From: Ilumatobacteraceae bacterium | GTDB taxonomy: Bacteria; Actinomycetota; Acidimicrobiia; Acidimicrobiales; Ilumatobacteraceae | Assembly: GCA_942492715.1 (NCBI GenBank) | Contig: CALOFW010000024.1 | Coordinates: forward strand, 587-64,586 | DNA length: 64,000 nt | Reading direction: 5' to 3' | Shown: one piece after another, positions 25,690 through 60,436 of the stretch | How the letters are laid out: the number at the start of each line of letters is the position of its first letter | Numbering within the stretch: position 1 is the stretch's first letter | The notes under the pieces: model-generated | The model's input: only the letters and a program-made list of their open reading frames with translations | Database searches by the model: none | Told to the model about the DNA's origin: nothing | Made by a program: the position numbers and the translations under genes

Positions 25690-25739
25690 ATTTGCGTTGC
25701 GTTCCGGGTGAGCCGCCCCACCCGAATCCTCACGCAAAC
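25690..25739 (+). repeat. 50-nt palindromic intergenic element, copy A
   Basis: ATTTGCGTTGCGTTCCGGGTGAGCCGCCCCACCCGAATCCTCACGCAAAC. Lies between convergent stops 25666 and 25755. Confidence 0.65.
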
Positions 25740-25754
25740 GTGGAGGGGCGGGGG

Positions 25755-26739
25755 TCACGTCGGGCAGGTGACGACGGCGGTTCCCTCGGCTTCCTCACTC
25801 AGGTCGGGATCACTGTCGGATGTGTGCTCGAAGGTGCCCGTGTACGTCACGGTGGAGCCGTCGAACGAGAGCCCGTCGGCGCTGCCGCTCGCCGTCGAGA
25901 TCACACTGGACCATCGGTCGTCACCATCGATCACGTACACGCCGCCGATGACACCGTCGCCGTCGGGTCGCACGTCGAACTGCAGCTGGCGATTCTCGGT
26001 GGCGAGGTAGTTGATCGTGATGTCGATCGAGTCGGGCGCAGCCACCTGGCAGGTCGTGCTGTCGGCCGCGAACAGCGGGAACGTGAACGCCTCGCCCGCG
26101 ACCTCGAAGCTGGCCGGTTCGATGCCGCAGTTGACCGCGACGGTGACCTCCACCGTCGGAGTGTCCATCTCGCCTTCCGACATCGCGATCCGGTCCTGGC
26201 GCACGCCTGTGCCCACGTAGCTGAGCGTGTTGGCGTCGTTGTCGATACCGAGCTCGCCATCGAACGGCTGGGCGCTGTACTGGATCCAGCTGTCGGCGTC
26301 GCCCTCGTCGGAGTCGGCGGTGAACCGGCCGATCCAGCCGTCGTCGACCCGGTCGGCGTTGAGGGTCATCGAGCCGAACTCGCTGGTGACCGCGAGCGCG
26401 ATCACGTCGTCGGAGAAGGTGCAGTTGAACGAGCCGCCGGCTTCGTTGGCGGTGTGGTCGATCGTGCGCCCGTCGACCGTGACCACGGCGTGGCCCGGTT
26501 CGGCCGACACGGTGACCGGTCCTGCAGCGAGCGCTCCGGGGACGGCCTCCATGCCACCCGAGTCGTCACCCGTGGCGTCGTCACCGCCGGTCGCGTCGCC
26601 GACTGCGGCGTCGTCCGTCGACCTGGTCGAACGGCGAACCGTCACCGACGTCGAGTCCGCCGCCACCACATCCGGCCTGCAGTGCGGCCGAGCCCACGAT
26701 GGCGAGTACCGCCCATGTGCCTGCGCGAGTGCGTTGCAT
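25755..26739 (-). pseudogene. lipoprotein; signal peptide and mature part are in different frames
   Basis: MQRTRAGTWAVLAIVGSAALQAGCGGGG (ATG 26739, lipobox) ends at a TGA at 26581. The body STDDAAVGDATGGDDATGDDSGGMEAV..VVTCPT is in another frame. The shift lies between about 26590 and 26640. Confidence 0.55.
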
Positions 26740-26899
26740 CGGCGCCCCCTTTCCCCTCGTCGGAGCGTGCCCCGCCTGCGACCGTACCGAACACGCCATG
26801 CAGGGTCAACGGCCGATCGACGAGCGGGATCCCCGACGCCGTCACGTTCGGCGTCGCCGTCTCGTCCCGCCTCGGCCGACGATCCCATAGCCTCGCCCC

Positions 26900-27865
26900 A
26901 TGCGGATCATCGTCGTCGGAGCCGGAGCGGTCGGCGGGGTCGTCGCTGCCAACCTCGCACTGGCGGGTATGCCGGTGGTCGCCGTCGCCCGCGGCGAGCA
27001 CGCCCGGGTGATGCGCGAGTCCGGGCTGCGCTACGAGTCGCCCACCGGCACCCGGATCGTCGACCTGCCCGTCGCCACGTCGGTCGGCGAGATCGACGTC
27101 ACCGACGACGACGTGTTCATGCTCGGCGTCAAGAGCCAGGACACCGTCGGCGTGCTGAACGACCTCCGCGCCGCCGGCGTCACCGACCAGCCGATCGTGT
27201 GCATGCAGAACGGCGTCGCCAACGAACGCCAGGCGCTGCGCCTGTTCCCGAACGTGTACGGCATGGTCGTCATGCTCCCCGCCGACCACCTCGCCCCCGG
27301 CGTCGTGCGGGTCTGGACCGCACCGAGCTCCGGGCTCCTCGACGTCGGCCGCTACCCGCACGGCGTCGACGACCTGAGCGTGCAGCTCGCCGCCACGCTC
27401 GAAGCGGCGACGTTCGGCTCGATCCCGCGCGCCGACATCATGAGCTGGAAGTACCGCAAGCTGCTGATGAACCTCGGCAACGCCGTCGAAGCGGTGTGCG
27501 GCCGGGACGCACGCCTCGGCGAGATGGTGCGGGCCGAAGGCGAGGCGGTGCTCGCCGCGGCAGGGATCACGGTGGTCAGCACCGAGGAGGACCTGGCCCG
27601 CCGCGGCGACGCGTTGAAGATCCAGCCCGTCGGCGACGAACCACACCGCGCCGGAGGATCGTCGTGGCAGAGCCTGCAACGCGGCACCGGCACGATCGAG
27701 ACCGACTACCTCACCGGCGAGATCGTGCTGCTCGGCCGACTCCACGGCGTCCCGACCCCCGCCAATCAGGCGCTGCAGCAGGCCGCCGCCGAGATGGCCC
27801 GCACCGGCGAAGCCCCGGCCTCACGCACCGTCGACGACGTGTTCAGATCGATCGACGCGGCCTGA
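26900..27865 (+). CDS. panE: 2-dehydropantoate 2-reductase (ketopantoate reductase) family
   Basis: MRIIVVGAGAVGGVVAANLALAG..SWKYRKLLMNLGNAVEA..SSWQSLQRG..TEIDYL-type motif TIETDYLTGEIV. Confidence 0.8.
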   Translation: MRIIVVGAGAVGGVVAANLALAGMPVVAVARGEHARVMRESGLRYESPTGTRIVDLPVATSVGEIDVTDDDVFMLGVKSQDTVGVLNDLRAAGVTDQPIVCMQNGVANERQALRLFPNVYGMVVMLPADHLAPGVVRVWTAPSSGLLDVGRYPHGVDDLSVQLAATLEAATFGSIPRADIMSWKYRKLLMNLGNAVEAVCGRDARLGEMVRAEGEAVLAAAGITVVSTEEDLARRGDALKIQPVGDEPHRAGGSSWQSLQRGTGTIETDYLTGEIVLLGRLHGVPTPANQALQQAAAEMARTGEAPASRTVDDVFRSIDAA

Positions 27866-27878
27866 CACCCGTTCGGCG

Positions 27879-28343
27879 ATGAGCGAGACTGACTCGGTGC
27901 TCGCCCGCTCCGCCATCGTGTTCGTCATCGTCGGGGCGACGGCCGTCGCAGCGTGCGGCGACGACGCTGCGTCAGGACCGACCCCGTCATCCGCATCCGC
28001 CCCGCCCTCGACGAGCCTCGGGACCAGCGCCGACGAGCAGGCATTTCCCGACATCCTCGACGTCGCCGTCTCCGCCGAGGACGACGCGTTCCGGTTCGAC
28101 GTCACCGTTTCGTCGCCGTACGACACGCCCGAGCGCTACGCCGACGCGTGGCGGATCGTCGCCCCGGACGGCACCGAGCTCGGCGTGCGCGAACTCACCC
28201 ACGACCACGCCGCGGAGCAGCCGTTCACCCGGTCGCTCACCGACGTCGCGATCCCGCCCGACGTGACGGAGGTGACCATCGAGGGACGCGATCTGGTCAA
28301 CGGCTGGGGCGGCGCCACGATGACCGTGACGATCGAACGCTGA
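27879..28343 (+). CDS. lipoprotein, function unknown
   Basis: Signal/lipobox IVFVIVGATAVAACGDD, then a Ser/Pro linker and a ~100-aa domain. Confidence 0.6.
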   Translation: MSETDSVLARSAIVFVIVGATAVAACGDDAASGPTPSSASAPPSTSLGTSADEQAFPDILDVAVSAEDDAFRFDVTVSSPYDTPERYADAWRIVAPDGTELGVRELTHDHAAEQPFTRSLTDVAIPPDVTEVTIEGRDLVNGWGGATMTVTIER

Positions 28344-28377: not shown

Positions 28378-28385
28378 GAGGTCGG

Positions 28386-34609: not shown

Positions 34610-34640
34610 CAACGGCCGGCCCGGCGAGCGATCTCGCGTC

Positions 34641-41040: not shown

Positions 41041-41051
41041 GCTGCAGGACG

Positions 41052-47500: not shown

Positions 47501-48175
47501 ATGATGAAGCTGTTCGAACACCCGACAACACACGAGACCAAGGAGCTTCCGAAGCTGCCCCCCGGTGTCGTCGTTCCCGATGACATCAGCGGCTTGGAGA
47601 CTTCCGAGTCCGAACAACCGGGTCGTCCTGGAAGCCAGGTCCGCTGGCTGCGGTGGATGGTCGTGGTCGTGCTGCTGGCGGTCGGTGCCCTCGTGATCGG
47701 CACCCTGGTCCGCGATGACAGCACTACGACGGTCGAAACCCCCAACGCCCAACAGCTGATCCAGGAATCGATCGACCAAGCACTGCTGGACAACCAGACC
47801 GCAACGGTCGAAACCCCCAACGCCCAACAGCTGATCCAAGAATCGATCGACCAAGCACTGCTGGACAACCAGACCGCAACGGTCGAAACCCCCAACGCCC
47901 AACAGCTGATCCAAGAATCGATCGACCAAGCACTGCTGGACAACCAGACCGCAACGGTCGAAACCCCCAACGCCCAACAGCTGATCCAAGAATCGATCGA
48001 CCAAGCACTGCTGGACAACCAGACCGCAACGGTCGAAACCCCCAACGCCCAACAGCTGATCCAAGAATCGATCGACCAAGCACTGCTGGACAACCAGACC
48101 GCAACGGTCGAAACCCCCAACGCCCAACAGCTGATCCAAGAATCGATCGACCAAGCACTGCTGGACAACAAGTGA
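47501..48175 (+). CDS. single-pass membrane protein with 25-aa tandem repeats
   Basis: Purine-rich leader with GGGAGAGAG before ATGATG. TM WLRWMVVVVLLAVGALVIGTLV. Then TVETPNAQQLIQESIDQALLDNQTA x5 plus a truncated sixth copy. Confidence 0.7.
   Translation: MMKLFEHPTTHETKELPKLPPGVVVPDDISGLETSESEQPGRPGSQVRWLRWMVVVVLLAVGALVIGTLVRDDSTTTVETPNAQQLIQESIDQALLDNQTATVETPNAQQLIQESIDQALLDNQTATVETPNAQQLIQESIDQALLDNQTATVETPNAQQLIQESIDQALLDNQTATVETPNAQQLIQESIDQALLDNQTATVETPNAQQLIQESIDQALLDNK
47729..48172. repeat. 75-bp tandem repeat, about 5.9 copies, near-perfect
   Basis: Units start at 47729, 47804, 47879, 47954, 48029 and 48104. Units 2-5 read as identical. Unit 1 differs by one synonymous G/A at 47764. 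The last unit is truncated (AAC AAG TGA). Confidence 0.95.
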
Positions 48176-48317
48176 CGCCAGCGGAGCCGAACCGTTCGGC
48201 CCGACGAGAACAGGAGGTGATCGGCCTTGACACCGAGATCATCCGATCAGAAGGAAGTGCGGCACCCGAGCCGCTCGGGTGCCGCATCGCCGCGTCTGGC
48301 GACGACCTCGGTCGGAG

Positions 48318-49163
48318 TCAGCCGGCCGGCTCGACGCGCCACACGTCGCCATGCGACTTGACGTGCCCGGCGCACGGCTCCCAGTGAGTGCCGAACACCA
48401 GCTCGTCGGTGTCGGCGCGCCCGGCGAAGAACCCCCGGCGGGTCGCTTCGGCTCCGGCGGGGTCGACGTCGAACGAACTCCCCCACTCCGGATGCGTCGC
48501 CTGGCACACCATGTGCGACAGATCGCCGGTGATCACCGCCCGCTCGCCGCCGCTCTCGATCAGCACGCTCACGTGGCCGGGCGTGTGACCCGGTGTCGGC
48601 GCCAGCGACACGTGCGAGGTGAGCCGGGCATCGGTGGCCACCAGGTCGACCAGCCCCGCGTCGATCACCGGCTGGATCGAGTCGGCGCGCAGCACCTGAT
48701 CCATCCCCGAGTCGTCGCGCTGCCAGTGCTCCCACTCGACGTCGGCGAAGAGATAGCGGGCGTTGGGGAACGTCGGCACCCACTCGCCGTCGACGAGGCG
48801 GGTGTTCCACCCGACGTGGTCGACATGGAGGTGCGTGCACAACACCGTGTCGATCGACTCGGGTGGGAACCCGGCGGCGGCCAGGTCGTCGAGGAACGGA
48901 CCCGACCGCATGCTCCACGACTCGACCGGCCGCTCCTTGTCGTTGCCGAGACACGTGTCGACCAGGATGCGTCGCCCGTCGCTCTCCACCACCAGCGCCC
49001 GGATCGTCATGTGCACCTTGCCGTCGGGCGTTGCGTAGTGGGGCACCATCCACTCGATCTCACGGATCCGATCGGCCGTTGCTTCGGGCAGCAGCCAGTG
49101 CGCAGCCGACGTCGTGGTCAACTCCGCGATCTCGGTGACCCGTACCTCTCCGATCGTCCACAT
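48318..49163 (-). CDS. MBL-fold metallo-hydrolase (lactonase-like)
   Basis: MWTIGEVRVTEIAEL..VLCTHLHVDHVGWN (HxHxDH)..TPGHTPGHVSVLIE. Confidence 0.8.
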   Translation of the reverse strand: MWTIGEVRVTEIAELTTTSAAHWLLPEATADRIREIEWMVPHYATPDGKVHMTIRALVVESDGRRILVDTCLGNDKERPVESWSMRSGPFLDDLAAAGFPPESIDTVLCTHLHVDHVGWNTRLVDGEWVPTFPNARYLFADVEWEHWQRDDSGMDQVLRADSIQPVIDAGLVDLVATDARLTSHVSLAPTPGHTPGHVSVLIESGGERAVITGDLSHMVCQATHPEWGSSFDVDPAGAEATRRGFFAGRADTDELVFGTHWEPCAGHVKSHGDVWRVEPAG

Positions 49164-49194
49164 GGACGCGAGCTTGCCAGGTGAGCCCCAGACC

Positions 49195-49244
49195 GTTTGC
49201 GTTGCACTTCGGGTGACCCGTCCCTCCCGAAGTTGCACACGAAC
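49195..49244 (+). repeat. 50-nt palindromic intergenic element, copy B (most diverged)
   Basis: GTTTGCGTTGCACTTCGGGTGACCCGTCCCTCCCGAAGTTGCACACGAAC. Lies 25 nt below stop 49269 and 32 nt above start 49163 of minus-strand genes. Confidence 0.55.
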
Positions 49245-49268
49245 GTCGAAGTCGGGTGCAGGCGACGA

Positions 49269-50240
49269 TCAGTCGGATGTCGCTGGTCGCACCCCCGCAT
49301 CCCGGCGGCGAGCGGCGATGTCGGGATCGACACCCGCCCGGCGCCAGGCATCGGCATCGACGGGCGAGAAGCCGGTGGCCGACCAGTCGGCCGCCTCACG
49401 TGGGCGAACACCGAGTTCGAGCCACTGCGCCGCATCGTGTGGGCGAACGCCCGAGGCGACCCACTTGGCGAGCTTGCGGTCGGGAACCGATGTGGCCGCC
49501 CACTCGTCGGCCGACTCCTCGGTCGCGCCGGCATCGAGAGCGACGCGGCGGCGAACCACGTGCGCGGTCCAGCCACCCTCCGGCCGCTGCTCGCGGGCGG
49601 TCTCGACGTCGAAGCCCACCGACTCCAACAGCCGGGCGACGTCGGGATCGTCGACCACGTCGATCCACGCCGATGCGCTCGTCGCCGAGAATCCGGCCGA
49701 CGACCACTGCGCGGCCGTCGACGCGGACACTCCGGTGTCGATCCACGCGAGCGCCTTCTTCATCTTGAGGCCGGCCGCGGCGGCGTAGGCGATCTCGTCC
49801 GCGGTGCGTCCTGCGCGCAGGTGGGCCAGCGCCTTGGCCGGCCCGACGTCGCCCGACGCCACGTCGGCGAGCTGCTCGACCTCGGTGACGTCGGCATCGG
49901 TCGATGCCCACGGGGCGAACTGCGCGCCCGAGGTGAAGCCCCGGTCGATCGCCTCGAGGATCCGCTCCGCCGTGAAGCCCTCCCAGGTCTCGATGAAGGT
50001 CGGGTCGGTGGGCAGTCCGCGCGCTTCGAGGGACGCGGCGAACGCGAGGTCCGGAGCCTGGCGGCCCGCCCGGCGGAACTCGGTGATCTCCTCGGTCGTG
50101 AGCGACGAGTCGTACCAGCGAGCAGCGTGGGGCGGCGGCAGGGTGCCGTCACGGAACATGATCGTCACGACGGCGTCGGGCAGCCCCGACGCGATCCAAC
50201 GTTCCCGGTCGTGGCGATCGGCGTGGGTCATGCCGACCAT
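49269..50240 (-). CDS. repeat protein built from a 13-residue xxAxxWxxxGxxP unit; function unknown
   Basis: C-terminal run: RKLAKWVASGVRP HDAAQWLELGVRP REAADWSATGFSP VDADAWRRAGVDP DIAARRRDAGVRP. Degenerate copies run throughout (KKALAWIDTGVSA, STAAQWSSAGFSA, DRERWIASGLPDA). Confidence 0.6.
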   Translation of the reverse strand: MVGMTHADRHDRERWIASGLPDAVVTIMFRDGTLPPPHAARWYDSSLTTEEITEFRRAGRQAPDLAFAASLEARGLPTDPTFIETWEGFTAERILEAIDRGFTSGAQFAPWASTDADVTEVEQLADVASGDVGPAKALAHLRAGRTADEIAYAAAAGLKMKKALAWIDTGVSASTAAQWSSAGFSATSASAWIDVVDDPDVARLLESVGFDVETAREQRPEGGWTAHVVRRRVALDAGATEESADEWAATSVPDRKLAKWVASGVRPHDAAQWLELGVRPREAADWSATGFSPVDADAWRRAGVDPDIAARRRDAGVRPATSD

Positions 50241-50390
50241 GTTCCCCGCTCGACGGGCCCGCCCGCAATCCCGATGGTGACCGCGCCCGCCGGGAGCGTT
50301 CCAGTCTCAGCGGATCTGGTCGCGACACCCGCGACCGATTCCGCCGAGAGATGTCAGCGTCGGTGATGGTGGCCGTCGGCGGCGGGAGCG

Positions 50391-51167
50391 TCAGCGGAGG
50401 TGGCGTCCGCAGTGCGGCCAGGGGCGGGCGCCGCGTTCGCTGAAGAGGGCCTGGGCCATGGCGTCCTGATCGGCGGGCGTCGCGGCGGCGGGATCGGCCC
50501 CGACGAGGCGAGGGGCGTGGCGCTCGGCGACCGAGTTCCAGGTCGACCGATCGAACTGGTACGCCCCGCGGTACTTCCCGGACGGGTTGGTGATCGAGTA
50601 GTCGCCACCGGCTTCACACTGACGGAGGGCCGCCCACTGCTCGGCCGACGGACCGGGCGGGAGGGGCGCAACGGGCAGCAGGTCGGTCGGCAGCCCTGCG
50701 AACTCGAGGGCGCTCCGGTGCGCCGAGAGCGTTGCGGCCGAGTACCAGCCGTCGACGTCGATCCCGAGCACGGCCTGCAACACCTCGACACGCGGGCCGC
50801 GTTCGTCCCACGTGTACGTCTCGGTCATCACGCGGGTGGCGAGCTCGAACGGCGACTCCGGCCGGTTCGCGAGCTCGCGTTCGGCTTCGACCGGTGTCTC
50901 GGCCCGTGTCTTGACGCCCAGGTCCGGGACCGACGAGATCCTCGGGGCGACACGCGGCTGCGCCGGGTTGCCCGGGGGCCGAGCCTCGGGCGACGCGCTC
51001 GGCGAGTCGATCGCGCTGGCCGCCGGGACGGGGTCGTCACCGAGGGCACGGGCAACCAGTGGGGCACCGCCGATCACGATCGCCGCGGCGAGCGCAGCGG
51101 CCGACCGCCGGATGGCGAGTCGGTGTCGGTGGATGGCAGAGCCGTGGTGGGGGGAAGAGGGGATCAT
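50391..51167 (-). CDS. resuscitation-promoting-factor (Rpf)-like transglycosylase domain protein
   Basis: AAGGAG RBS. N-terminal anchor AALAAAIVIGGAPLVARA. C-terminal WAALRQCEAGGDYSITNPSGKYRGAYQFDRSTWNSV. Confidence 0.75.
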   Translation of the reverse strand: MIPSSPHHGSAIHRHRLAIRRSAAALAAAIVIGGAPLVARALGDDPVPAASAIDSPSASPEARPPGNPAQPRVAPRISSVPDLGVKTRAETPVEAERELANRPESPFELATRVMTETYTWDERGPRVEVLQAVLGIDVDGWYSAATLSAHRSALEFAGLPTDLLPVAPLPPGPSAEQWAALRQCEAGGDYSITNPSGKYRGAYQFDRSTWNSVAERHAPRLVGADPAAATPADQDAMAQALFSERGARPWPHCGRHLR

Positions 51168-51395
51168 GACGCTCCTTGGGAGGTGCACCGGCGCATCGAC
51201 ACACGCGGGTTTCCGCGGTGGACACAAGTGCTGGTCGACTGCAAATGTTACGGACGCGTGACGAAAAGGGGTCAGCGGGCCGAGGAGTCATCGGTCACAC
51301 CCGCACCGCCACGCTCGGTCCGAACGTCGGGACATTGGTCCGTTGCGGCCGATGACCGCCGAGGTGAAGACTGGCCGAGCACGAAAGGGGTCCCC

Positions 51396-53459
51396 ATGCG
51401 GTCGACCGAACAGATCAGGAACGTGGTACTCGTCGGCCACAACTCGAGCGGCAAGACGAGCCTCGCGGAGGCGCTGCTCTTCCGAGCCGACGTGATCGCC
51501 CGACCGGGCGCGATCGAGAAGGGGTCCACCGTGATGGACCACGACCCCGAAGAACGCGCCCGTCAGCAGTCGATCTCGCTGTCGGTGGCGTCGTTCGACT
51601 GGAACGACCATCGCATCAACCTCATCGACACCCCCGGCTACGCCGATTTCCGCGGCGAAGCCCTGCTCGGCCTCGCCGCCGCCGACCTCGCCGTGTTCGT
51701 GATCGACGGCGTGGCGGGTGTGCAGTCGCAGGACGTGGTGCTGTGGCGACACGCCGCCGACATGGGCACCCCGCGAATCGTGTTCGTCAACAAGCTCGAC
51801 CGCGAACGCTCGTCGTTCGACCGCACCCTCGCCCAGGTGCGCGAGGTGTTCGGCTCGCACGCCGACCCGACCGAGCTGCCGATCGGCGAGGAGTCGAGCT
51901 TCCACGGCGTCACCGACGTGCTCACCCATCACGCCTTCGTCTACGACTCGGGCCGCGCCGAGCCGGCCGATGTCCCCGCCGACCTCGCCGAGGTCGAACG
52001 CGCCGAACACGAACACCTCGTGGAGGACGTGATCGAGCTCGACGACGACCTCCTCGAGCAGTACCTCTCCGGCGACGAACCCTCCGCCGAGCAGCTCGAA
52101 CATCTGCTGCACGATGCCGTCGACCGCGCCCTCGCGTTCCCCGTGCTGTGCGGATCGGCGACCGCACCGATCGGCGCCGACCAGCTCGCTGACTTCATCT
52201 GCCGCGTCGGCCCCGCTCCCGGCGACGCCGGCCCCGCAGTGGTCGAGGCCGCGGGCGACACGATCGAGATCGCGCCCGACCCCGACGGCCAGCCGCTCGT
52301 GCTCGTGTTCAAGACCACGATCGACGAGTTCCTCGGCCAGATCTCGTTCCTCAAGGTGCTCTCCGGCACGATCCGCTCCGACGACGTCCTCGTCAACCCA
52401 CGGTCCGGCGCGAAGGAGCGGCTGCACAACCTGATCTCGATGACCGGTGGCTCCCAGACCCACGTCGACACGATCGGTGCCGGCGACATCGTCGCGGTCA
52501 CCAAGCTCGCCGACACCCGCACCGGCGACACGCTCGCCCCCGAGGGCACGCCGGTGACCGCCATGCTCCCGAGGTTGCCGCGGCCGGTGTACGGCGTTGC
52601 GATCGCCGCCGCCAAGCAGTCCGACGAGGACCGGCTCGCCACCACGCTGCACCGGCTCGTGATCGAGGACCCGACGCTCGCGGTCCACCACGAGGACTCG
52701 ACCGGCCAGACCGTGCTCAGCGGGGGCGGCGAGACGCACGTCCGCGTGGCCCTGTCACGCATCGAGCGTGCCGGGGTCGAACTCGACGTCGACGACGTCC
52801 GCGTCGCCTACCGCGCCACCCTCGCCGCACCGGTCGAGGTGGAGGGCAAGTACAAGAAGCAGAGCGGCGGCCACGGGCAGTTCGGTGTGGCCACGGTTCG
52901 TTTCGAACCGCTCCCCTCCGGTGCAGGTTTCGAGTTCGTCAGCGAGGTGACCGGCGGCGTGATCCCGAAGAACCTGGTGCCGGCGGTGGGCGCCGGCGTC
53001 GAAGAGGCGATGGCCCGAGGTGGACGCGACGGCTTCCCGATCGTCGACGTTCGAGCGGTGTGCACCGGCGGCAAGTACCACTCGGTCGACTCGTCGGAGA
53101 TGAGCTTCAAGATGGCCGGCTCACTGGCGCTGCGCGAAGCGGTCGACCAGGTCGGCGTCGACGTGCTCGAACCGGTGAGCGAGATGATCGTCAAGGTGCC
53201 GGCCGTCCATCACGGCGACGTGCTCGGCGACCTCAACTCACGGCGCGCCCAGGTGCTCGGCACCGACACCGACGAATCCGGTGTGACCACCGTGCACGCG
53301 CTCGTCCCCACGGCGGAGATCCTGCGCTACGCGATCGACCTGCGCTCGCTCAGCGGCGGCAGCGGCTCGTTCGGCATCGATCACCACGGCTATCAGCCGC
53401 TCCCCGCCAACCTCGTCGACAAGGTCCGCCGAGCCGCCGTCGACGCCGCCGACACCTGA
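51396..53459 (+). CDS. elongation factor G paralogue (EF-G2-like GTPase)
   Basis: G1 VGHNSSGKTSL. G3 DTPGYADF. G4 NKLD. Domain IV/V segments KKQSGGHGQFG and EPVSEMIVKVP. Confidence 0.9.
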   Translation: MRSTEQIRNVVLVGHNSSGKTSLAEALLFRADVIARPGAIEKGSTVMDHDPEERARQQSISLSVASFDWNDHRINLIDTPGYADFRGEALLGLAAADLAVFVIDGVAGVQSQDVVLWRHAADMGTPRIVFVNKLDRERSSFDRTLAQVREVFGSHADPTELPIGEESSFHGVTDVLTHHAFVYDSGRAEPADVPADLAEVERAEHEHLVEDVIELDDDLLEQYLSGDEPSAEQLEHLLHDAVDRALAFPVLCGSATAPIGADQLADFICRVGPAPGDAGPAVVEAAGDTIEIAPDPDGQPLVLVFKTTIDEFLGQISFLKVLSGTIRSDDVLVNPRSGAKERLHNLISMTGGSQTHVDTIGAGDIVAVTKLADTRTGDTLAPEGTPVTAMLPRLPRPVYGVAIAAAKQSDEDRLATTLHRLVIEDPTLAVHHEDSTGQTVLSGGGETHVRVALSRIERAGVELDVDDVRVAYRATLAAPVEVEGKYKKQSGGHGQFGVATVRFEPLPSGAGFEFVSEVTGGVIPKNLVPAVGAGVEEAMARGGRDGFPIVDVRAVCTGGKYHSVDSSEMSFKMAGSLALREAVDQVGVDVLEPVSEMIVKVPAVHHGDVLGDLNSRRAQVLGTDTDESGVTTVHALVPTAEILRYAIDLRSLSGGSGSFGIDHHGYQPLPANLVDKVRRAAVDAADT

Positions 53460-53461
53460 CG

Positions 53462-53533
53462 GCCACCCACCACCCACCACGGCGCCACCCACCACCCGCC
53501 ACGGCGCCACCCACCACCCACCACCCGCCCCGG
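53462..53533. repeat. C-rich (CCACC-type) tandem repeat, about 3 units of 20-29 nt, directly after the EF-G2 stop
   Basis: GCCACCCACCACCCACCACG / GCGCCACCCACCACCCGCCACG / GCGCCACCCACCACCCACCACCCGCCCCG. Confidence 0.6.
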
Positions 53534-53534
53534 C

Positions 53535-53584
53535 GTTTGCGTCGAGATTCCGGTGACCCGCCCCACCCGAAACGCAACGCAAAC
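53535..53584 (+). repeat. 50-nt palindromic intergenic element, copy C
   Basis: GTTTGCGTCGAGATTCCGGTGACCCGCCCCACCCGAAACGCAACGCAAAC. Confidence 0.7.
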
Positions 53585-53605
53585 GGGAACCGCCCAACCC
53601 ACCAC

Positions 53606-53655
53606 GTTTGCGTCGAGGTTTCGGTGACCCGGCCCACCCGAAACGCTACGCAAAC
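53606..53655 (+). repeat. 50-nt palindromic intergenic element, copy D
   Basis: GTTTGCGTCGAGGTTTCGGTGACCCGGCCCACCCGAAACGCTACGCAAAC. Ends 22 nt from the acyP stop. Confidence 0.7.
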
Positions 53656-53676
53656 GGTGGGGGAAGGCGGGGCGGG

Positions 53677-53952
53677 TCAGTACTCGATGCGGAAGCTGCG
53701 TTCGGCGCGGAGCGGTTCGTCGGTGACGGCGATCCCCGTGACCTGTGCACGAGGAGGACCGTGCCGGCACCAGTCGAGGAACTGATCGATCACGTCGCGC
53801 CGGCCCTCGGCGACGACCTCGACGGTGCGATCCGATCGGTTGCGCACCCAGCCGCGCACGCCGAGTCGTTGCGCCTCGGCCCGGCAGCTGTCACGGAAGA
53901 ACACGCCCTGCACCCGACCCGACACGATCGCCCGGCACCGCACCTCGCTCAT
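53677..53952 (-). CDS. acyP: acylphosphatase
   Basis: MSEVRCRAIVSGRVQGVFFRDSCRAEAQRLGVRGWVRNRSDRTVEVVAEG. Motifs VxGxVQGVxFR and GWVRN. Confidence 0.85.
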   Translation of the reverse strand: MSEVRCRAIVSGRVQGVFFRDSCRAEAQRLGVRGWVRNRSDRTVEVVAEGRRDVIDQFLDWCRHGPPRAQVTGIAVTDEPLRAERSFRIEY

Positions 53953-54045
53953 CGTCACCCAGTCTCGCAGCCCCTGACCACCGTCGCCTCCACCCGCCCG
54001 CGCCGCACCGCACCGCACCGCACCGCCGCGGCCCGCATCCGACCG

Positions 54046-54095
54046 GTTTGCGCCGAGATTCGGGTGACCCGTCCCACCCAGAGTGCAACGCAAAC
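54046..54095 (+). repeat. 50-nt palindromic intergenic element, copy E
   Basis: GTTTGCGCCGAGATTCGGGTGACCCGTCCCACCCAGAGTGCAACGCAAAC, followed by GGAGAGGGGG. Confidence 0.7.
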
Positions 54096-54141
54096 GGAGA
54101 GGGGGACCTCGAACCGGTTTGGCCCGACCTCTCTGCGGAAC

Positions 54142-54191
54142 GTTTGTGTTGCAGTCTGGGTGACCCGTCCCACCCGAAGTGCAACGCAAAC
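54142..54191 (+). repeat. 50-nt palindromic intergenic element, copy F
   Basis: GTTTGTGTTGCAGTCTGGGTGACCCGTCCCACCCGAAGTGCAACGCAAAC, followed by GGAGAGGGGG. Lies 23 nt from the regulator stop at 54214. Confidence 0.7.
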
Positions 54192-54213
54192 GGAGAGGGG
54201 GCGCGAGAGTGGG

Positions 54214-56754
54214 TCAGGGGGCGAGGCCGCGGAGGGCGAGGCGGGTGCGCTCGACCGTGGTGGCGACCGGGAGCACGGCGCCGGCGGCGCGGCAGGCGGC
54301 GGCCTGATCGGCGCCGAGCTGCTGCTCGATCGAATCGCGGGTGTCGAGCACCAGGTCGCGCAGCGTCACCATGAGCGGCGGCGCCCCGACCGCGCTGTGG
54401 GCCTCGATCGAACCGAGCACTTCCGCGGCCACCGCAGGCTGGCCGATCCGATCGAGTGCGATCACGCAGCGCATCAGGGTGTGCCACTGCTGTGCCCACT
54501 CACCGGTGCGATACCAGACGTCGACCTGTTCCGCGAGCTCCTCGCAGCCGGGCCCGAGGTCGCCGTGCGACACCCGCAACGCGCCGATCTCGGTCCGAGC
54601 GAACGCGCTCAGCCACCGGTTGCCGACCGATCGGGCCAGACGGTCGCCGTGCGAGAACGCACTCAGCGCGTGCGCGTCGTCGCCGTGGATCGAGAACCCC
54701 TCGGCCACCCACGAGCACGCCAGGTCGGTGACGCCACCGGTGAGTTCGGCGGCGCGTCGGGAGAGCTGACTGAGCCGATGCCCCTCGTCGTAGTCGCCGC
54801 ACGAACTCGCCGCCACCGACGCCATGTAGAAGGCGTGCGCTCGCCGCGAATCGTTCCCCGAGGCGTTGGCCAGTTCGATCAGGTGGGCATTCTCGGCGAT
54901 TCCCCGCTCCAACTCGTCGATCGCGTAGTACACGTTCGCCCGCACCCGCTCCACGAGCCCGACCGGCGCCACCCCGAGCGTCTGCTCGGCGCGCTCAGCA
55001 GCGGCGGCCAGTTCCAGCGACCGACCGAACTCGCCGCGGCAGAAGGCGCCGTAGGCCCGCACGCCGAGCACCACCGGATACGCCGGATGTTCCGAGCCGC
55101 CCGGCATCTCCGACATCGCGTCGGCCCAGGTGAACACCTCGTAGTGGAGCGTGCGCATCCCGTACTCGCGCATGGCGCACGCGAGACCGAACGCCGTGTC
55201 GACGTCACCGATCTCCACCGAGAATCGCTGTGCGGCGCGGAGATCGGCGAACGACGCGTCCGCCCGAGCCACCGCGGCTCCCTCGTCGGTCGAGTTCAGG
55301 CCCGCCTCGATCGCCGCGGCGGCACCGGCGAACTGCCGTGCGTGTGTGGCGTACAGCGTCACGCTCCGCTCGTCGTCGAGGCGACTCCGGCCGTACTCCC
55401 GCAGCGTCTCGAGCATCTCGTACCGCGTCCCGCCGCCGGGTGAACGCCTCACCGCCAGCATCGACCGCTCGGTGAGCCGCGTGAGCACGTCGAGCACGTC
55501 GTCGTCCCCATCGGAGATCGATTCGGCGGCCGCCAGATCGAACTGTCCGGCGAACACCGCCAGCGACGCGAAGACCCGCTTCTCGTCGTCGTCGAGCAGC
55601 TCGTACGACCACCCGATCGCATCCTGCAACGTGCGATGCCGCGGGTCGGCGCCCCGCCGGACCCCCTTGAGGAGACGGAAGCGTTCGTCGAGCCGACTGG
55701 CGATCTCGGCCACGTCGATCGCTCGCGCCCGCGAGGCCGCCAGTTCCAGTGCGAGCGGGATGCCGTCGAGCCGCCGGCAGATCTCCACCACGGCGGGTGC
55801 GTTCTGCTCCGTCAGCTCGAAACCCGGGTCGGCCGCTTGCGCCCGCTCGAGGAACAACGCCACCGCCGGAACGCTCGCGAGGTCGGCGAACGGCGTCGCT
55901 TCGAGATCGTCGACCGACAGCGGCGCCACCGGACGTACGTGTTCACCCATCACCGCCAACGGTTCGCGACTGGTGGCCACGATCGAGACGCGAGGCGCCG
56001 CGCGAAGGATCCGCTCGACCAGCTCGGCGACCGGCTCCACCAGGTGCTCGCAGTTGTCGAGCAGCAACAGGGTGCTGCGGGCGCGGAGCACGTCGACGAT
56101 CGCATCCTCGATCGACAGGCCGAGGCCGGTGTTGACGCCCAACGCTCCCGCGATCGATGCGTAGGCCGCATCGCGGTCGTCGACCGTCACCAGCTCGACG
56201 ACGAAGACGCCATCGGCGTAGTGCGACGCGACCGCCCTGGCCAGCTCCATCCCGAGCGACGTCTTGCCCACACCGGCGCTCCCCACGAGTGTGATCAGCC
56301 GGCTCTCACCGAGTTCTTCGATCAATGCCGCCAGGAACTCGTCACGGCCGATCAGCCGTTGCAGGGCGATCGGCAGTTCGCGCGCCGGCTCGCCGAAGGC
56401 GTTGCCCCGATCGTCGTCGCCGTCACGCACGTCGGCCCGCCCGCCGACGATCCGGACCTCGGCGACGAACTCGTACCCCTTGCCGTGCACGGTGCGGATG
56501 ACGGCCTGGCGGGTGCCGTCGTCACCGACCGCTCGACGCGCCGACTTCATCCGTGACGTGAGCGCCGACTCGCTCACGAAACGATCGCCCCAGATCTCGT
56601 CGAGGAGCTCCTCCTTGCGCACCACCTCGCCGTGGCGCTCGGCGAGGAACTGCAGGACATCGAACACCTGCGGCTCCACCGGCACATCGCTCCCGCCACG
56701 CCGCAACACGACCCGGTCGAGGTCGAGTTCGCAGTCGTTGAATTCGATGATCAT
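54214..56754 (-). CDS. STAND-type regulator: OmpR/PhoB-type winged-helix DNA-binding domain + NB-ARC/AAA ATPase + TPR-like C-terminus
   Basis: MIIEFNDCELDLDRVVLRRGG..FDVLQFLAERHGEVV..IRTVHGKGYEF. Walker A LVGSAGVGKTSL. LLLLDNCEH. GIPLALELAA. Confidence 0.8.
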   Translation of the reverse strand: MIIEFNDCELDLDRVVLRRGGSDVPVEPQVFDVLQFLAERHGEVVRKEELLDEIWGDRFVSESALTSRMKSARRAVGDDGTRQAVIRTVHGKGYEFVAEVRIVGGRADVRDGDDDRGNAFGEPARELPIALQRLIGRDEFLAALIEELGESRLITLVGSAGVGKTSLGMELARAVASHYADGVFVVELVTVDDRDAAYASIAGALGVNTGLGLSIEDAIVDVLRARSTLLLLDNCEHLVEPVAELVERILRAAPRVSIVATSREPLAVMGEHVRPVAPLSVDDLEATPFADLASVPAVALFLERAQAADPGFELTEQNAPAVVEICRRLDGIPLALELAASRARAIDVAEIASRLDERFRLLKGVRRGADPRHRTLQDAIGWSYELLDDDEKRVFASLAVFAGQFDLAAAESISDGDDDVLDVLTRLTERSMLAVRRSPGGGTRYEMLETLREYGRSRLDDERSVTLYATHARQFAGAAAAIEAGLNSTDEGAAVARADASFADLRAAQRFSVEIGDVDTAFGLACAMREYGMRTLHYEVFTWADAMSEMPGGSEHPAYPVVLGVRAYGAFCRGEFGRSLELAAAAERAEQTLGVAPVGLVERVRANVYYAIDELERGIAENAHLIELANASGNDSRRAHAFYMASVAASSCGDYDEGHRLSQLSRRAAELTGGVTDLACSWVAEGFSIHGDDAHALSAFSHGDRLARSVGNRWLSAFARTEIGALRVSHGDLGPGCEELAEQVDVWYRTGEWAQQWHTLMRCVIALDRIGQPAVAAEVLGSIEAHSAVGAPPLMVTLRDLVLDTRDSIEQQLGADQAAACRAAGAVLPVATTVERTRLALRGLAP

Positions 56755-56843
56755 CCGCACGCCCCCCGCCGGTGAACGGCATCCGCTCACCAGCCTGTCG
56801 GACGAGCTTGCCACGTTCTGGTGTGGTGGCGCGTCGGTGCCGG

Positions 56844-58091
56844 TCACACCCGGCTGGCGGTGGTCGCGAGATGGCCGACCAGATGCGTCGCGAGGTCGTC
56901 GGCGTCGGGGCCGACCCCGTCGAGGAAACTCGACTTGCGACGTCGCAGGAACGGCAGCCCCAGCACGTACATACCCGGCACGGGAAGCACGCCGCCGTCG
57001 TGCACGAGTCGCCCCTTCCGGTCCAGCAGCCGCGGATCGAGCCACGGGTAGGTCGGCCGGAACCCGGTGGCCCACACAACGGTGCCGATCGAGCGCAGGT
57101 CGGCCTCCAACACCGGCGGCCCCACCGCGGTGGGGGCGGGGCGCGACGGCTCGCGGAGTTCGCCGTCGAGGCCGTGGGCAGTGGCGTACTCGTCGCACAG
57201 GTCGAGCAACCGGCCCTGCTTGAGGTCGGCCGACGCGCACATGTTGGCGAACGAACCGGAGAACTGCGCCCGGTGTCCGCTGCACCCCACGAGGCGTCCG
57301 ACGAGCCGAGCCCCGTTGGCGGCCACGGCGTTCAGGTCGAGGTCGCGCCGTTCCGGTGTGCCGACCAGCTGCAGTGACGGCAGACGCCGGGCGCGGCCGA
57401 TGTCGGGCACCTCGTCGTAGCGCTCGTCGAGCTGACCGACGGCGTCCATCCACCAGTGGATGTCCATGCCCCGATAGGTGCGGGGCAGGCGGACGTGGTC
57501 GCCGACGGCCAGCGTCACCTCGCGACCCGCTCGGCTGAGTTCGTCGGCGATCTGCAGCCCGGACGCCGACGCCCCGACGACCAGCACGCCGCCGTCGGCG
57601 AGCCGATCGGGAGCGCGGTAGCGGATCGGCGACACGTGGTCGAGATGATCCGGCATGCCGTTCGCGATCGGCGGGATGTGCGGATCGCTGCAGGCACCGG
57701 TGGCGAGCACCACCGCCCGCGCACGCCACTCGCCGTCATCGGTGGCGACGACGTGCGACGTGTCGGACGACTCGATGTCAGTCACGCCGGTGCCGTGCCG
57801 GACCGGCGCGTCGAACGAGCGCCGGTAGTCGTCCAGGTGGGCGGCCACCTCGACGGCGGTCATGTAGCCGTCGGGGTCGTCGCCCCGGTAGGCCCAACCG
57901 GGGAGGCGGCTCAGCCAGTTGGGCGTGAGCAACCGGAGCGAGTCCCAACGTTGCGTCCTCCACGAGTTGGCGGTGTCGCCGCGTTCGAGCACGATGTGAT
58001 CGACGGATCGACGGGTCAGGCAGTGGCTCATCGCCAAGCCCGCCTGCCCGCCGCCGATCACGACGACATCGGTGGTTCGTGGTGCAGTCAT
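56844..58091 (-). CDS. flavin-containing monooxygenase-type NAD(P)/FAD-dependent oxidoreductase (paralogue of 29392..30573)
   Basis: DVVVIGGGQAGLAMSHCL. WRTQRWDSLRLLTPN. VLVVGASASGLQIA. WATGFRP. Confidence 0.8.
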   Translation of the reverse strand: MTAPRTTDVVVIGGGQAGLAMSHCLTRRSVDHIVLERGDTANSWRTQRWDSLRLLTPNWLSRLPGWAYRGDDPDGYMTAVEVAAHLDDYRRSFDAPVRHGTGVTDIESSDTSHVVATDDGEWRARAVVLATGACSDPHIPPIANGMPDHLDHVSPIRYRAPDRLADGGVLVVGASASGLQIADELSRAGREVTLAVGDHVRLPRTYRGMDIHWWMDAVGQLDERYDEVPDIGRARRLPSLQLVGTPERRDLDLNAVAANGARLVGRLVGCSGHRAQFSGSFANMCASADLKQGRLLDLCDEYATAHGLDGELREPSRPAPTAVGPPVLEADLRSIGTVVWATGFRPTYPWLDPRLLDRKGRLVHDGGVLPVPGMYVLGLPFLRRRKSSFLDGVGPDADDLATHLVGHLATTASRV

Positions 58092-58134
58092 CGGACTCAC
58101 TCCGGTACTCGCCGCCAGCCGCTCGGTCGACGGT

Positions 58135-58710
58135 TCAGTTGACCGAGACGACGATCGACGTCGGGTTGGCGATGACGTCGAACGATGCCGATCGCTTCTG
58201 AGACTGGGCGACGATGCCCTCGAGCTCGGCCTCGGTGGCGTCGGCATCGATGTCGTAGTGCACCCGGATCGCGGAGAACCCGTTGCGGACGTCGCTGTCG
58301 ATGCCCAGGATCCCGGCGAGGTCCATGTTCGCCTCCACGGTCGCCTTCACCGAGCGGAGCTGCACCCCGCGGTGGGTCGCCACCGACGCGACACCGGCGG
58401 TCAGGCAGCCGGCAAGGCCGATCAGCAACATCTCCGGCGGCGTCGGGCCGTTGTCGGCAGAGGCGAAGAGCTCCGGGTGGTCGGTGTCGGCCGAGTACGG
58501 CTGGCGGTGGGTCTGCTCGCCGCCGGCCCCGCTGAACTTCTCGACGGTCGTGCGGCTGTGGGTGCCGTTGACCCACTCGCAGTCGGCGCGCCACGTGAAC
58601 TGCGCCAGCTCCGGCATCTCGGTCATGTGATCCCGGGCGCCGAGCAGGGCTTCGACGTTGACGCCGTTGTCGACGGCGGGGGTTTCGGTGCTGGTTTGGG
58701 TGATGGTCAT
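58135..58710 (-). CDS. OsmC-family protein (peroxiredoxin-like)
   Basis: GGAG RBS. PPEMLLIGLAGCLTAGVASVA..IRVHYDIDADATEAELEGIV..SASFDVI. Confidence 0.8.
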   Translation of the reverse strand: MTITQTSTETPAVDNGVNVEALLGARDHMTEMPELAQFTWRADCEWVNGTHSRTTVEKFSGAGGEQTHRQPYSADTDHPELFASADNGPTPPEMLLIGLAGCLTAGVASVATHRGVQLRSVKATVEANMDLAGILGIDSDVRNGFSAIRVHYDIDADATEAELEGIVAQSQKRSASFDVIANPTSIVVSVN

Positions 58711-58879
58711 GGTGGTTGCTCCTTCGGGTCCGGACGGGATCGGTGTCCCGTACCGGGTCGGTGGTTGTCGAGCACCACCGTGACGGAACGCCCGAGCCGA
58801 TGCTTGGAGACGAGGTGGAGATGACCCGAAGATGCATCTCCATCCGGTCTCCAAGACCTGACGGGCCGACATCGTCACG

Positions 58880-59734
58880 ATGGAACCCATGACCACGAAC
58901 GACACAACCCACGAAACGACGGGCAAGGATCATCCGGCCGACAGACCGGAGGGCCACGACTGGGAGGTGGCCGGCTCTGCCTGGGGGCGGTGCTCACGCG
59001 ACTGGGCGTGCCTGTTCGAGCACTACGCGGTCGACGTGATCCAGGCGATCTTCCGCCGCGTCGGCGTCGACGAGGGCACGTCGATGCTCGACATCGCGTG
59101 CGGGTCGGGGCTGGCCGTCCGCTATGCGGACGAGATGGGCGCCGACGCCGCCGGGATCGACGCGGCGGCACCACTGGTCGAGATCGCCCGCGACCGCGCC
59201 CCCGATGCCGACCTTCGTATCGGCAACATGTTCGAGCTGCCGTGGGCCGACGAGTCCTTCGACGCGGTCACGTCGATCAACGGGGTGTGGGGCGGCTGCG
59301 AGGGCGCGCTCGTCGAGGCCCATCGAGTGCTGAAGCCCGGTGGCCGCATCGGGATCAGCTTCTGGGGCAAGGGGCACCTCGACCTGCGCGCCTGCTTCAT
59401 CGCCTTCGCACTGAACGCGCCGGAGACGCACATGGACGGGATGCGGCGCACCAACGACATCGCCCGTCCCGGCGTCGCCGAGGCGATGCTGGAGTCGACC
59501 GGCTTCGAGGTGCTCGAACGAGGCGGCCGCACCTCGACCGTCGAGTGGCCGGACGCCGACACGGCCTGGCGAGCGATCTCGAGCGTCGGGCCCGCTGTGC
59601 CCGCACTGGAGAAGGTGGGCGCCGACGTGCTGCGCCCGCAGGTGATGGAGTCCGTCGAGACCCTGAAGGACCGCCACGGCATCTACCGGTTCTGCAACGA
59701 CCAACAGTTCGTCATCGCCCGCAAGCCCGCCTGA
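58880..59734 (+). CDS. class I SAM-dependent methyltransferase
   Basis: MLDIACGSGLAVRYA (motif I). FDAVTSINGVW. LKPGGRIGISFWG. Confidence 0.8.
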   Translation: MEPMTTNDTTHETTGKDHPADRPEGHDWEVAGSAWGRCSRDWACLFEHYAVDVIQAIFRRVGVDEGTSMLDIACGSGLAVRYADEMGADAAGIDAAAPLVEIARDRAPDADLRIGNMFELPWADESFDAVTSINGVWGGCEGALVEAHRVLKPGGRIGISFWGKGHLDLRACFIAFALNAPETHMDGMRRTNDIARPGVAEAMLESTGFEVLERGGRTSTVEWPDADTAWRAISSVGPAVPALEKVGADVLRPQVMESVETLKDRHGIYRFCNDQQFVIARKPA

Positions 59735-59749
59735 CTCGCACCCTGCTTC

Positions 59750-59799
59750 GTTTGCGACGAGATCTCGGTGACCCGCCCCACCCGGAATGCAGCGCAAAC
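59750..59799 (+). repeat. 50-nt palindromic intergenic element, copy G
   Basis: GTTTGCGACGAGATCTCGGTGACCCGCCCCACCCGGAATGCAGCGCAAAC. Starts 16 nt after stop 59734. Confidence 0.7.
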
Positions 59800-59828
59800 G
59801 ACGAATCGGGGATCGGTACCGTGGCGGC

Positions 59829-60356
59829 GTGGATCCGCGTGTGGCCGAGCTGATCGAGCAGTACGGGTTCGAGCCGCTGCCCGTGGAGGGCACGCTGTTC
59901 GTGAGCACCTACCGGTCGACCGACGACACGCCGGACGGCGGGCCGGTCGGCACGGCGATGATCGGCATGTACGCCCACGAGCCGATCAGCCGCTCGCTGT
60001 TCCATCGGCTCCCCACCGACGAGATCTGGCACTTCTACGGCGGCGACCCGATCCGCCTGGTGCTCCTCCACCCCGACGGCACGTCGGCCGACGTCTGGCT
60101 CGGGACCGACGTCGGTGCCGGGCAACGGGTGCAGTTCGTGATCCCCGCGGGGACCTGGCAGGCCGGTGAGCTGCTTCCCGACGGCGTCCACGGGCTGTTC
60201 GGCTGCACGATGGCACCCGGGTTCACCGGCGCCGGATTCGAGGCCGGCACCCGCGCCGCGCTCCTCGCCTCCCACCCCGATCGGGCAGCCGACATCGAAC
60301 GCCTCACCGTCGCCGATGGCAGCCACACCTCCATGCCCGACGGCTTCGCCACCTGA
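59829..60356 (+). CDS. cupin-fold protein, DUF985-like
   Basis: VDPRVAELIEQYGFEPLPVEGTLFVSTYRS..IWHFYGGDPIRLVLL..VIPAGTWQAG..GCTMAPGF. The ORF-track ATG at 59787 lies inside repeat copy G, so the GTG at 59829 is preferred. Confidence 0.7.
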   Translation: MDPRVAELIEQYGFEPLPVEGTLFVSTYRSTDDTPDGGPVGTAMIGMYAHEPISRSLFHRLPTDEIWHFYGGDPIRLVLLHPDGTSADVWLGTDVGAGQRVQFVIPAGTWQAGELLPDGVHGLFGCTMAPGFTGAGFEAGTRAALLASHPDRAADIERLTVADGSHTSMPDGFAT

Positions 60357-60386
60357 CCCGCTCACCACCCCGCCACCGATCACCCC

Positions 60387-60436
60387 GTTTGCGCGACACA
60401 TCGAGTGACCCGGTCCACCCGGAATGCAACGCAAAC
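60387..60436 (+). repeat. 50-nt palindromic intergenic element, copy H
   Basis: GTTTGCGCGACACATCGAGTGACCCGGTCCACCCGGAATGCAACGCAAAC. Lies between convergent stops 60356 and 60479. Confidence 0.7.

Follow-up and report, generated by a model that had tools for sequence, protein, structure and literature searches.

Short repeats of the repetitive extragenic palindromic (REP) type have, to our knowledge, been well studied in Proteobacteria and received little comparable work in Actinomycetota, and no literature on such repeats was found for uncultured soil Acidimicrobiia. The stretch of DNA considered here, a window of 64,000 nt from an uncultured soil lineage of Ilumatobacteraceae (Acidimicrobiia) with a GC content of 65-71%, contains eight copies (A to H, Table 1) of a 50-nt palindromic element located between genes. 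These copies belong to a lineage-specific family of palindromic repeats that are interspersed between the genes of Ilumatobacteraceae. The family is probably of the same kind as REP sequences and miniature inverted-repeat transposable elements (MITEs) and probably supplies hairpins at the ends of transcripts. The family has a conserved hairpin with covarying base pairs, flanks of characteristic composition, a copy number that changes between relatives and a mixed orientation, and both a mode of spread and an effect at the RNA level can be suggested for it.

REP systems are defined by a GTAG-type tetranucleotide at the 5' end of the repeat, and they possess a cognate single-copy RAYT gene, encoding a Y1/HUH transposase, which is usually itself flanked by REPs. 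Their effects include protection of mRNA 3' ends, as for the REPs of E. coli, and termination. The elements of the window resemble REPs, BIMEs and REPINs in being short imperfect palindromes in intergenic DNA, often just past stop codons and between convergent genes, in occurring singly or in clusters, in having species-specific variants, in persisting vertically with turnover within genomes, and in lacking a target-site duplication. The effects known from REPs also fit the positions at which the present elements are found. They differ from REPs in that their 5' end is CGTTTGCG and not a GTAG-type tetranucleotide, in the C-rich and G-rich flanks and strictly fixed length of the unit, in the lack of any RAYT seen in the window or in about 10 kb past its right end, and in their actinobacterial host. 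REPINs are defined by inverted doublets (PMC3337134), whereas the present clusters consist of copies repeated directly in tandem at periods of 70-72 and 96 nt and follow neither this arrangement nor the alternating layout of BIMEs.

A second comparison is offered by the TRIT motif, of which 147 palindromic, mostly bidirectional copies were described at gene ends of M. tuberculosis, with a binding factor suggested by the authors (PMC3152330). TRIT has been reported only in Mycobacterium, where its centre falls within the coding sequence, about 8 nt ahead of the stop (PMC3152330). Both TRIT and the present elements are sequence-conserved, palindromic and bidirectional hairpins at gene ends, restricted to one lineage of high-GC actinobacteria that are poor in canonical terminators. 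The present host, however, belongs to the Acidimicrobiia, and its copies start 15-75 nt past stop codons or sit in divergent spacers; TRIT is set apart by its described host range and position. TRIT is the nearest functional analogy to the present family, and REP/REPIN is the nearest evolutionary one.

Other described systems are further removed. MITE, Correia, RUP, BOX, ERIC and SMAG elements are likewise non-coding, intergenic and foldable, with terminal inverted repeats and presence/absence polymorphism, and the possible composite mobilisation of a gene lying between two copies is shared as well. The present elements nevertheless lack target-site duplications, their flanks are complementary in composition and are not direct repeats, and at 50 nt they are shorter than most MITEs, the whole unit being a single hairpin. 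Integron attC sites run 5' to 3' from R'' (RYYYAAC) to R' (GTTRRRY). Like attC sites and CALINs, the present copies are imperfect palindromes of similar size that are locally co-oriented, small genes (Cupin_5, acyP, a toxin-antitoxin pair) adjoin them or lie between them, and one bracketed gene (Cupin_5) changes place. Unlike attC sites, they end in GTTTGCG...CGCAAAC, which has the reversed GTT/AAC polarity, no integrase appears in the Pfam tables, the intervals of 0.07-24 kb are mostly multi-gene, core-like stretches, an inverted copy is found nearby, and Cupin_5 also moves without elements. A CRISPR array, in which near-identical direct repeats alternate with unique spacers of about 26-72 nt, differs as well, as copies C and D are only 92% identical and the copy at the EF-G-like site of the related locus L008 is 84% identical to copy C, the spacers of 20-22 nt are related to each other, and the copies are dispersed. 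In Rfam 15 no element of the window had a match at the gathering threshold, the sole match in the window being a SAM riboswitch, and at E-values up to 10 the region 53440-54260 gave only chance microRNA and long non-coding RNA matches of 11-16 bits. No description of the element family was found in the literature either, and the impression of the first-pass annotation, made from the letters of the window, that this is not a described family is supported as far as these searches reach.

Within the window, the pattern GTTTGCG-N36-CGCAAAC with up to two mismatches occurs at exactly eight sites, all on the plus strand, where 0.25 would be expected. The loop motif GTGACCCGNCCCACCC, again with up to two mismatches, has nine matches where 0.78 would be expected; the ninth, at 44625, falls within coding sequence by chance and is not a member of the family. 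The observed counts were reached in none of 100 shuffles, and the covariance-model E-values of the copies range from 1e-13 to 1e-19. Neither a hidden Markov model of the eight (nhmmer) nor the covariance model with its filters off found a further clear copy in the 64 kb. The eight copies first reported, each of exactly 50 nt, are confirmed, and their number lies far above chance. The ends reported for them, GTTTGCG to CGCAAAC, hold in general but not for every copy, since the 5' side reads (G/A)TTTG(C/T)G and the 3' side either CGCAAAC or the variant CACGAAC. High-GC intergenic regions readily form hairpins, and RNA folds of the 71-nt stretches containing the copies (-24 to -35 kcal/mol) clearly beat shuffles in five of the eight cases (z -2.2 to -3.6), while the other three show no improvement on them (z -0.5 to -1.1). 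On such grounds the copies might be taken for unrelated GC-rich hairpins, or for chance resemblances in a genome of 69% GC, but this explanation is refuted to the point of being negligible by the shuffled counts and E-values, the uniform length and the recurrence of the element in many species.

That recurrence was followed in the relatives of the host. The EF-G-like protein encoded at 51396-53459 has its nearest GTDB species among uncultured Ilumatobacteraceae metagenome-assembled genomes (MAGs), at 95-96% protein identity and mostly from the Microflora Danica soil survey; the exact protein also occurs on metagenome contigs and MAGs, and gene calls based on a codon-usage model agree with the gene tables of the matching contigs. 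A covariance model built on 51 unique copies, used together with nhmmer, identifies 54 sites in the window and the related loci (L007-L042 and L082), all exactly 50 nt long and scoring 34-74 bits. The family is present in at least 20 loci of related species, always at 50 nt, and had no match in loci of distant Acidimicrobiales or of non-actinobacteria. Its density is 2-8 copies per 22 kb in the window clade (L007-L010) and falls to roughly one per 16 kb where EF-G-like identity is 82-90%, and only one weak match was found in species at 69-78% identity. About 74 kb of the present genome hold 8-9 copies, and each 22-kb locus of its relatives holds 0-8. The pattern GTGACCCGNCCCACCC-N9-CGCAAAC had no match in viral contigs, and blastn of the C/D region gave none against plasmids. 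A pattern match on a metagenome contig (L087) was discarded as a chance match inside a CRP-like coding region.

The unit shared by all these sites is an imperfect hairpin with a fixed length of 50 nt, or 52 nt with a flanking C/G pair. Its parts are a conserved 8-bp stem base (CGTTTGCG/CGCAAACG), a mid-stem that varies and often contains mismatches, an inner stem of 5-8 bp and a conserved 8-nt loop, RCCCGNCC. The pairs of positions 1-8 with 43-50 are nearly invariant, and pairs 9, 11, 13 and 17 are mismatched in many copies. Among 55 unique copies, (C)GTTTGCG forms the 5' end of 52, C25 in the loop and C30, which closes the stem, are invariant, G26 is conserved in 95% (and invariant among the 51 aligned copies), and position 27 is free to vary. 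Conservation is higher in loop and stem base than in the mid-stem, and the conserved centre of the element that had already been remarked upon in the window is in this way confirmed across the family.

When a 21-pair hairpin is imposed on the alignment, 81.7% of cells form standard pairs, compared with 28-44% when the 3' partner is slid by one to three columns. The covariation score of 0.182 exceeds that of column shuffles (0.144 +/- 0.009) and was reached in none of 500. Pair 19:32, for example, is GC in 35, TA in 12, AT in three and CG in one of the 55 unique copies, with only four mismatches. Compensatory changes, which were also sought, are present: the inner stem changes between copies from GGGTG/CACCC to GGTTG/CAACC, and four copies of L038 carry GGAG/CTCC in place of TTGC/GCAA at positions 8-11/40-43. 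The hairpin is under selection, its base pairing being kept by compensatory change. Copy F forms the best hairpin of the eight (-34.9 kcal/mol, z -3.6), and the stem of copy D is lengthened by its flanks CCCACCAC and GGTGGGGG. Folded as DNA, the 50-mers of these two copies reach -12.6 to -15.3 kcal/mol on both strands (z -2.8 to -4.6). The stems carry no strand-specific wobble signature, and strand-specific RNA selection was rejected because G.U-type and A.C mismatches are balanced (G.T 85 versus A.C 69, p=0.23).

Copy number changes between close relatives at orthologous places. The spacer between acyP and the regulator gene contains no copy in L010, one in L007, two in the window and in L009, and four in L008 (period 70-72 nt), while the EF-G-like/acyP spacer contains one or two copies and is occupied in at least 10 related species. 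The site of copy B is empty in the orthologous spacer of L007 and L008. Copy C is 72-92% identical to the other copies of the window, as opposed to 62-70% to copies at its own site in the GGTTG-type clade, and identity is 84-90% between copies of the GGTTG type that differ in both site and genome. The same double substitution at many sites of one clade points to homogenisation or replacement within genomes rather than independent vertical decay. Of the three options raised in the first-pass annotation (a sequence-conserved terminator, a REP/MITE-like repeat and a protein- or sRNA-related site), a REP/MITE-like repeat is well supported, by interspersion, copy-number variation, tandem arrays and concerted evolution; a terminator is plausible, if not of the canonical kind. 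At L038 13680-19831 five copies lie within 6 kb, of which four form a private GGAG/CTCC subfamily, as if the element had recently proliferated there within this species.

The C-rich 5' and G-rich 3' flanks noted for several copies proved to be real. Over 55 copies, C makes up 52% and G 19% of the 30 nt preceding the element, and the 30 nt that follow it contain 49% G, 23% C and 15% T. Element-free spacers of the same loci show a C-G bias near zero, and the empty orthologous acyP/regulator spacer of L010 (42 nt) is also without C- or G-rich tracts, which indicates that the tracts belong with the element. The pattern is its own reverse complement, either strand reading C-rich tract, hairpin and G-rich tract, and so gives no mark of orientation. 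In-register pairing of the two flanks is found at 4.0 of 10 positions for true and likewise at 4.0 of 10 for chimeric combinations; the complementarity is thus compositional only, and insertion into pre-existing hairpins, with site-specific flank complementarity, was rejected for the same reason. Arrays of simple units also occur in this part of the window. A microsatellite-like, C-rich array of 6.8 (CCGCA) units lies at 53994-54026, upstream of copy E. Lengths of 217 nt (window), 195 nt (L001) and 188 nt (L005) for the EF-G-like/acyP spacer show that its C-rich array (53462-53526, 22-nt unit) varies in length within the species.

With respect to neighbouring genes, six window copies (A, B, D, F, G and H) have a stop codon at a distance of 15-30 nt, and copy C lies 75 nt past the EF-G-like stop; these distances, as well as that of copy E from the acyP start (93 nt), agree with what had been described. 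Elements are found in 17 of 66 convergent spacers compared with 22 of 320 other spacers, an excess that is inflated in that about 10 of the 17 convergent occurrences are one orthologous site. With orthologues collapsed there are about six convergent, eight co-directional and seven divergent sites, and about a third of the non-redundant sites lie in divergent, promoter-side spacers. Hairpins at 3' ends seem to be in general use in these genomes, since convergent spacers without an element show more structure than divergent ones (median z -0.98 versus -0.11) and since an unrelated hairpin stands between convergent genes at 62127-62157; the family can supply such hairpins. The unrelated one is a perfect 14-bp palindrome (TTACATCTGGGGTC TGA GACCCCAGATGTAA) without a T-run in the SnoaL-like/glutaminase spacer.

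A bidirectional role at transcript ends is likely for the copies at gene ends, secondary to their nature as a repeat family. A canonical Rho-independent terminator was rejected in view of the missing U/T tract, the 3' flanks being 49% G and 15% T. A terminator scan of 48000-62000 called none of the element hairpins, its only match near the elements (53596-53580, minus strand) being a small hairpin of the spacer with a tail that extends into copy C. The terminator proposed earlier is plausible for the many copies just past stops, but not in its canonical form. Alternatively, the element could be a dedicated TRIT-like, sequence-specific terminator, working in both directions through a lineage-specific factor or through Rho on the C-rich tract, with its repetition reflecting selection and not mobility. 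The conserved loop (C25, G26) and stem base around a variable mid-stem, the six window copies 15-30 nt past a stop, the occupation of the EF-G-like site in at least 10 species, even with another downstream neighbour (L018, L023), and the TRIT precedent (PMC3152330) would all agree with this, and the C-rich, G-poor upstream tract on either strand might resemble a Rho loading region. Such a terminator is still unlikely, as copies also sit in divergent spacers or upstream of starts (L009 19419, 22 nt from the ADH (alcohol dehydrogenase) start; copy E upstream of acyP), arrays of two to four copies and orthologous spacers with none in close relatives mark the copies as dispensable at a given gene end, homogenisation within genomes would not be expected of independently selected signals, and a U-tract is lacking.

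The uniform orientation of the copies was also compared with that in relatives. All eight do lie on the plus strand of the window, each scoring 8-32 bits better on that strand than on the other, yet C/D and E/F are local tandem duplicates, which leaves six independent sites and makes the chance of 1 in 128 given in the first-pass annotation overstated. The next copy to the right, on a contig of the same species (L091 6293-6342), lies about 3.4-3.7 kb past the window end by coordinate mapping and is inverted (56 versus 39 bits), while the GC skew keeps its sign there. Counted by independent sites, orientation in this genome is 6 versus 1 (two-sided p about 0.13). In related species 16 copies are plus and 9 are minus, the GC skew having the same sign in every one of these loci, and two inverted copies occur among relatives at the EF-G-like site itself, where arm-to-arm recombination flipping the loop would explain them. 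Uniform orientation is a local pattern, not a rule, and its use as a sign of specificity had to be abandoned, orientation being mixed in the same genome just outside the window as well as in relatives. A link to the direction of transcription was rejected, as G has the same sense as its flanking genes and B and E/F have the opposite one, and so was replication-strand orientation of the IS200/IS605 kind as a rule, given the inverted L091 copy without a change of skew and the 16 to 9 split in relatives. Random orientation together with absent covariation had been named as the signs of a plain GC hairpin; orientation is indeed mixed, but covariation is present.

A different set of observations concerns mobility. 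Copies G and H form the left and right ends of a block, here termed E-Cupin_5-E, which encloses the Cupin_5 gene. Window 59748-60440 aligns to L009 19417-20096 at 84.7% identity, and the homology ends 2-4 nt outside both copies. In L009 (18261-20096) the block is found across the ADH gene from its position in the window, while copy G and a decayed remnant of the Cupin 3' end stay at the old place; neither Cupin nor elements are found at that place in L008 (18340-18470) and L010 (17950-18050). Thin as it is, this evidence hints that the DNA between two copies can be moved by them. In two other contexts (L096, L097), however, the Cupin_5 homologues lack any element within 10 kb, and a cassette was rejected for this reason. 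A search with tblastn in 1.6 Mb of loci, using two Y1 transposases and amounting to a weak test, found nothing better than E 0.9, and no parent insertion sequence with matching ends was seen in the loci examined.

Perhaps the element acts at the DNA level, as a cruciform, single-stranded hairpin or pair of inverted half-sites for a recombinase, HUH enzyme or nucleoid protein, with pairs of copies mobilising the DNA between them. The sharp ends of the E-Cupin_5-E homology and its relocation in L009 with a remnant left behind, alongside its absence from L008 and L010, could be read in this way, as could the bracketing of acyP by copies, the strict length of 50 nt, the conserved loop and the balanced wobble pairs, which are expected if both strands or double-stranded DNA matter. 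A DNA-level site is nonetheless quite improbable, because the Cupin_5 gene evidently moves without elements, no recombinase or transposase is nearby, the ends reverse the polarity of the attC layout, and the DNA between one copy and the next is mostly an ordinary stretch of several genes (4-24 kb); moreover, elements at synteny breakpoints may be a consequence and not a cause. A related and very doubtful proposal is that the repeats are end sites of a putative hairpin-recognising DNA enzyme (a HUH/Y1-type transposase or recombinase) in Acidimicrobiia. Loop and stem base would then serve as determinants of recognition and cleavage, and two co-oriented copies would carry the gene between them to a new place, as seems to have happened to E-Cupin_5-E between the window lineage and L009. 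If true, this would constitute a REP/RAYT-like or cassette-like mobilisation system, and we know of no earlier one in Actinomycetota.

Several results weigh against an interspersed repeat family that supplies transcript-end hairpins and have to be set beside the evidence for it. The collapsed tally of spacer types is near the expectation from spacer numbers, so that outside the window clade a preference for 3' ends cannot be taken as established. No T-run follows the element hairpins, and mycobacterial RNA polymerase, according to one report (PMC3993855), needs a U-tract. By Pfam there is no transposase, RAYT, integrase or recombinase in the window or in about 10 kb past its right end, and the comparison of filled with empty sites gave no target-site duplication, with junctions that are not clean. 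Two related loci with Cupin_5 have no copy in 41 kb, which makes the density patchy, and copy counts cover about 74 kb of this genome and the loci of related species. Finally, RNAalifold returned no consensus structure for the family alignment, presumably because the mid-stem is often mismatched.

Taken as a repeat family, the elements would persist by turnover inside genomes, through local tandem duplication (with the 70-72 nt period), occasional new intergenic sites, loss and homogenisation. New stem variants would sweep through all copies of a genome with base pairing kept, and elements would be tolerated mainly just outside coding regions. Transcription from either strand would there produce the same C-rich tract, long hairpin and G-rich tract. 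The most likely effect in the cell would be a bidirectional transcript-end structure without a U-tract, which may aid pausing or termination, possibly with Rho acting on the C-rich tract, and/or may protect mRNA 3' ends as proposed here by analogy with the REPs of E. coli.

Table 1 Copies of the 50-nt element and associated features in the window, with covariance-model scores (plus strand unless stated).
Feature	Position	Strand	Genomic context	Sequence feature	Score
Copy A	25690..25739	+	Convergent: PemK/MazF-type toxin stop 25666, minus-strand gene stop 25755	Loop AGCCGCCC	59.4 bits plus, 47.9 minus
Copy B	49195..49244	+	24 nt past stop of 323-aa gene, 31 nt before start of metallo-beta-lactamase-fold gene; both genes minus		63.1 bits
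C-rich 5' flank of copy C	53462..53534			22-nt unit x2.9 (also CCACCCA x8.9); length differs between strains	
Copy C	53535..53584	+	Convergent EF-G-like GTPase / acylphosphatase (acyP) spacer	First of tandem pair	74 bits
Copy D	53606..53655	+	Ends 21 nt from acyP stop	Second of tandem pair, period 71 nt	68.1 bits
Copy E	54046..54095	+	93 nt upstream of acyP start; between two minus-strand genes		66.7 bits
Copy F	54142..54191	+	22 nt from stop of SARP/STAND-type regulator gene (minus)		71.7 bits
Copy G	59750..59799	+	15 nt past methyltransferase stop, upstream of Cupin_5; both genes plus		68.1 bits
Copy H	60387..60436	+	Convergent Cupin_5 (stop 60356) / zinc-ADH (stop 60479)	Most degenerate stem	55.3 bits
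Doubtful ninth member	58803..58855	+	Divergent OsmC/methyltransferase spacer	53-nt imperfect palindrome CTTGGAGAC...GTCTCCAAG	23 bits, E 3.5e-4

The doubtful ninth member listed in Table 1 has GATGACCCG in common with some variants of the family and may be a decayed or distant relative of it. Copy A follows a CcdA-like/PemK toxin-antitoxin pair on the plus strand. Further toxin-antitoxin modules occur in and around the window, the set comprising PIN, CcdA-like+PemK, another PemK and PIN+PSK_trans_fac (window 9160-9561 and 25179-25666; L088 924-1340; L091 4812-5509), and only the pair at 25179-25666 is directly followed by an element. Elsewhere in the window, the SAM riboswitch mentioned above (RF00162, 56.9 bits) is located at 3874-3962 (+), upstream of a gene at 4006-4626 that has no Pfam match, and a gene for a papain-family cysteine protease (10550-11656, +) lies close to one for a chagasin-type (I42) inhibitor (12132-12476, -). 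Long spurious open reading frames cross the elements, such as 53608-55443 (+, 611 codons) and 53677-54189 (-) among others, and could be mis-annotated by gene callers.

The finding overturns nothing, and strand-fixed orientation, the feature that looked special at first, fails. For annotators of these genomes, the covariance model makes it possible to mask a recurrent source of spurious open reading frames. As copy number differs between close relatives, the elements can also serve as strain- or species-level markers, and the model can flag likely assembly or rearrangement breakpoints. In genomes without U-tract terminators, the combination of a C-rich tract, a hairpin and a G-rich tract represents a concrete candidate for ending or stabilising transcripts.

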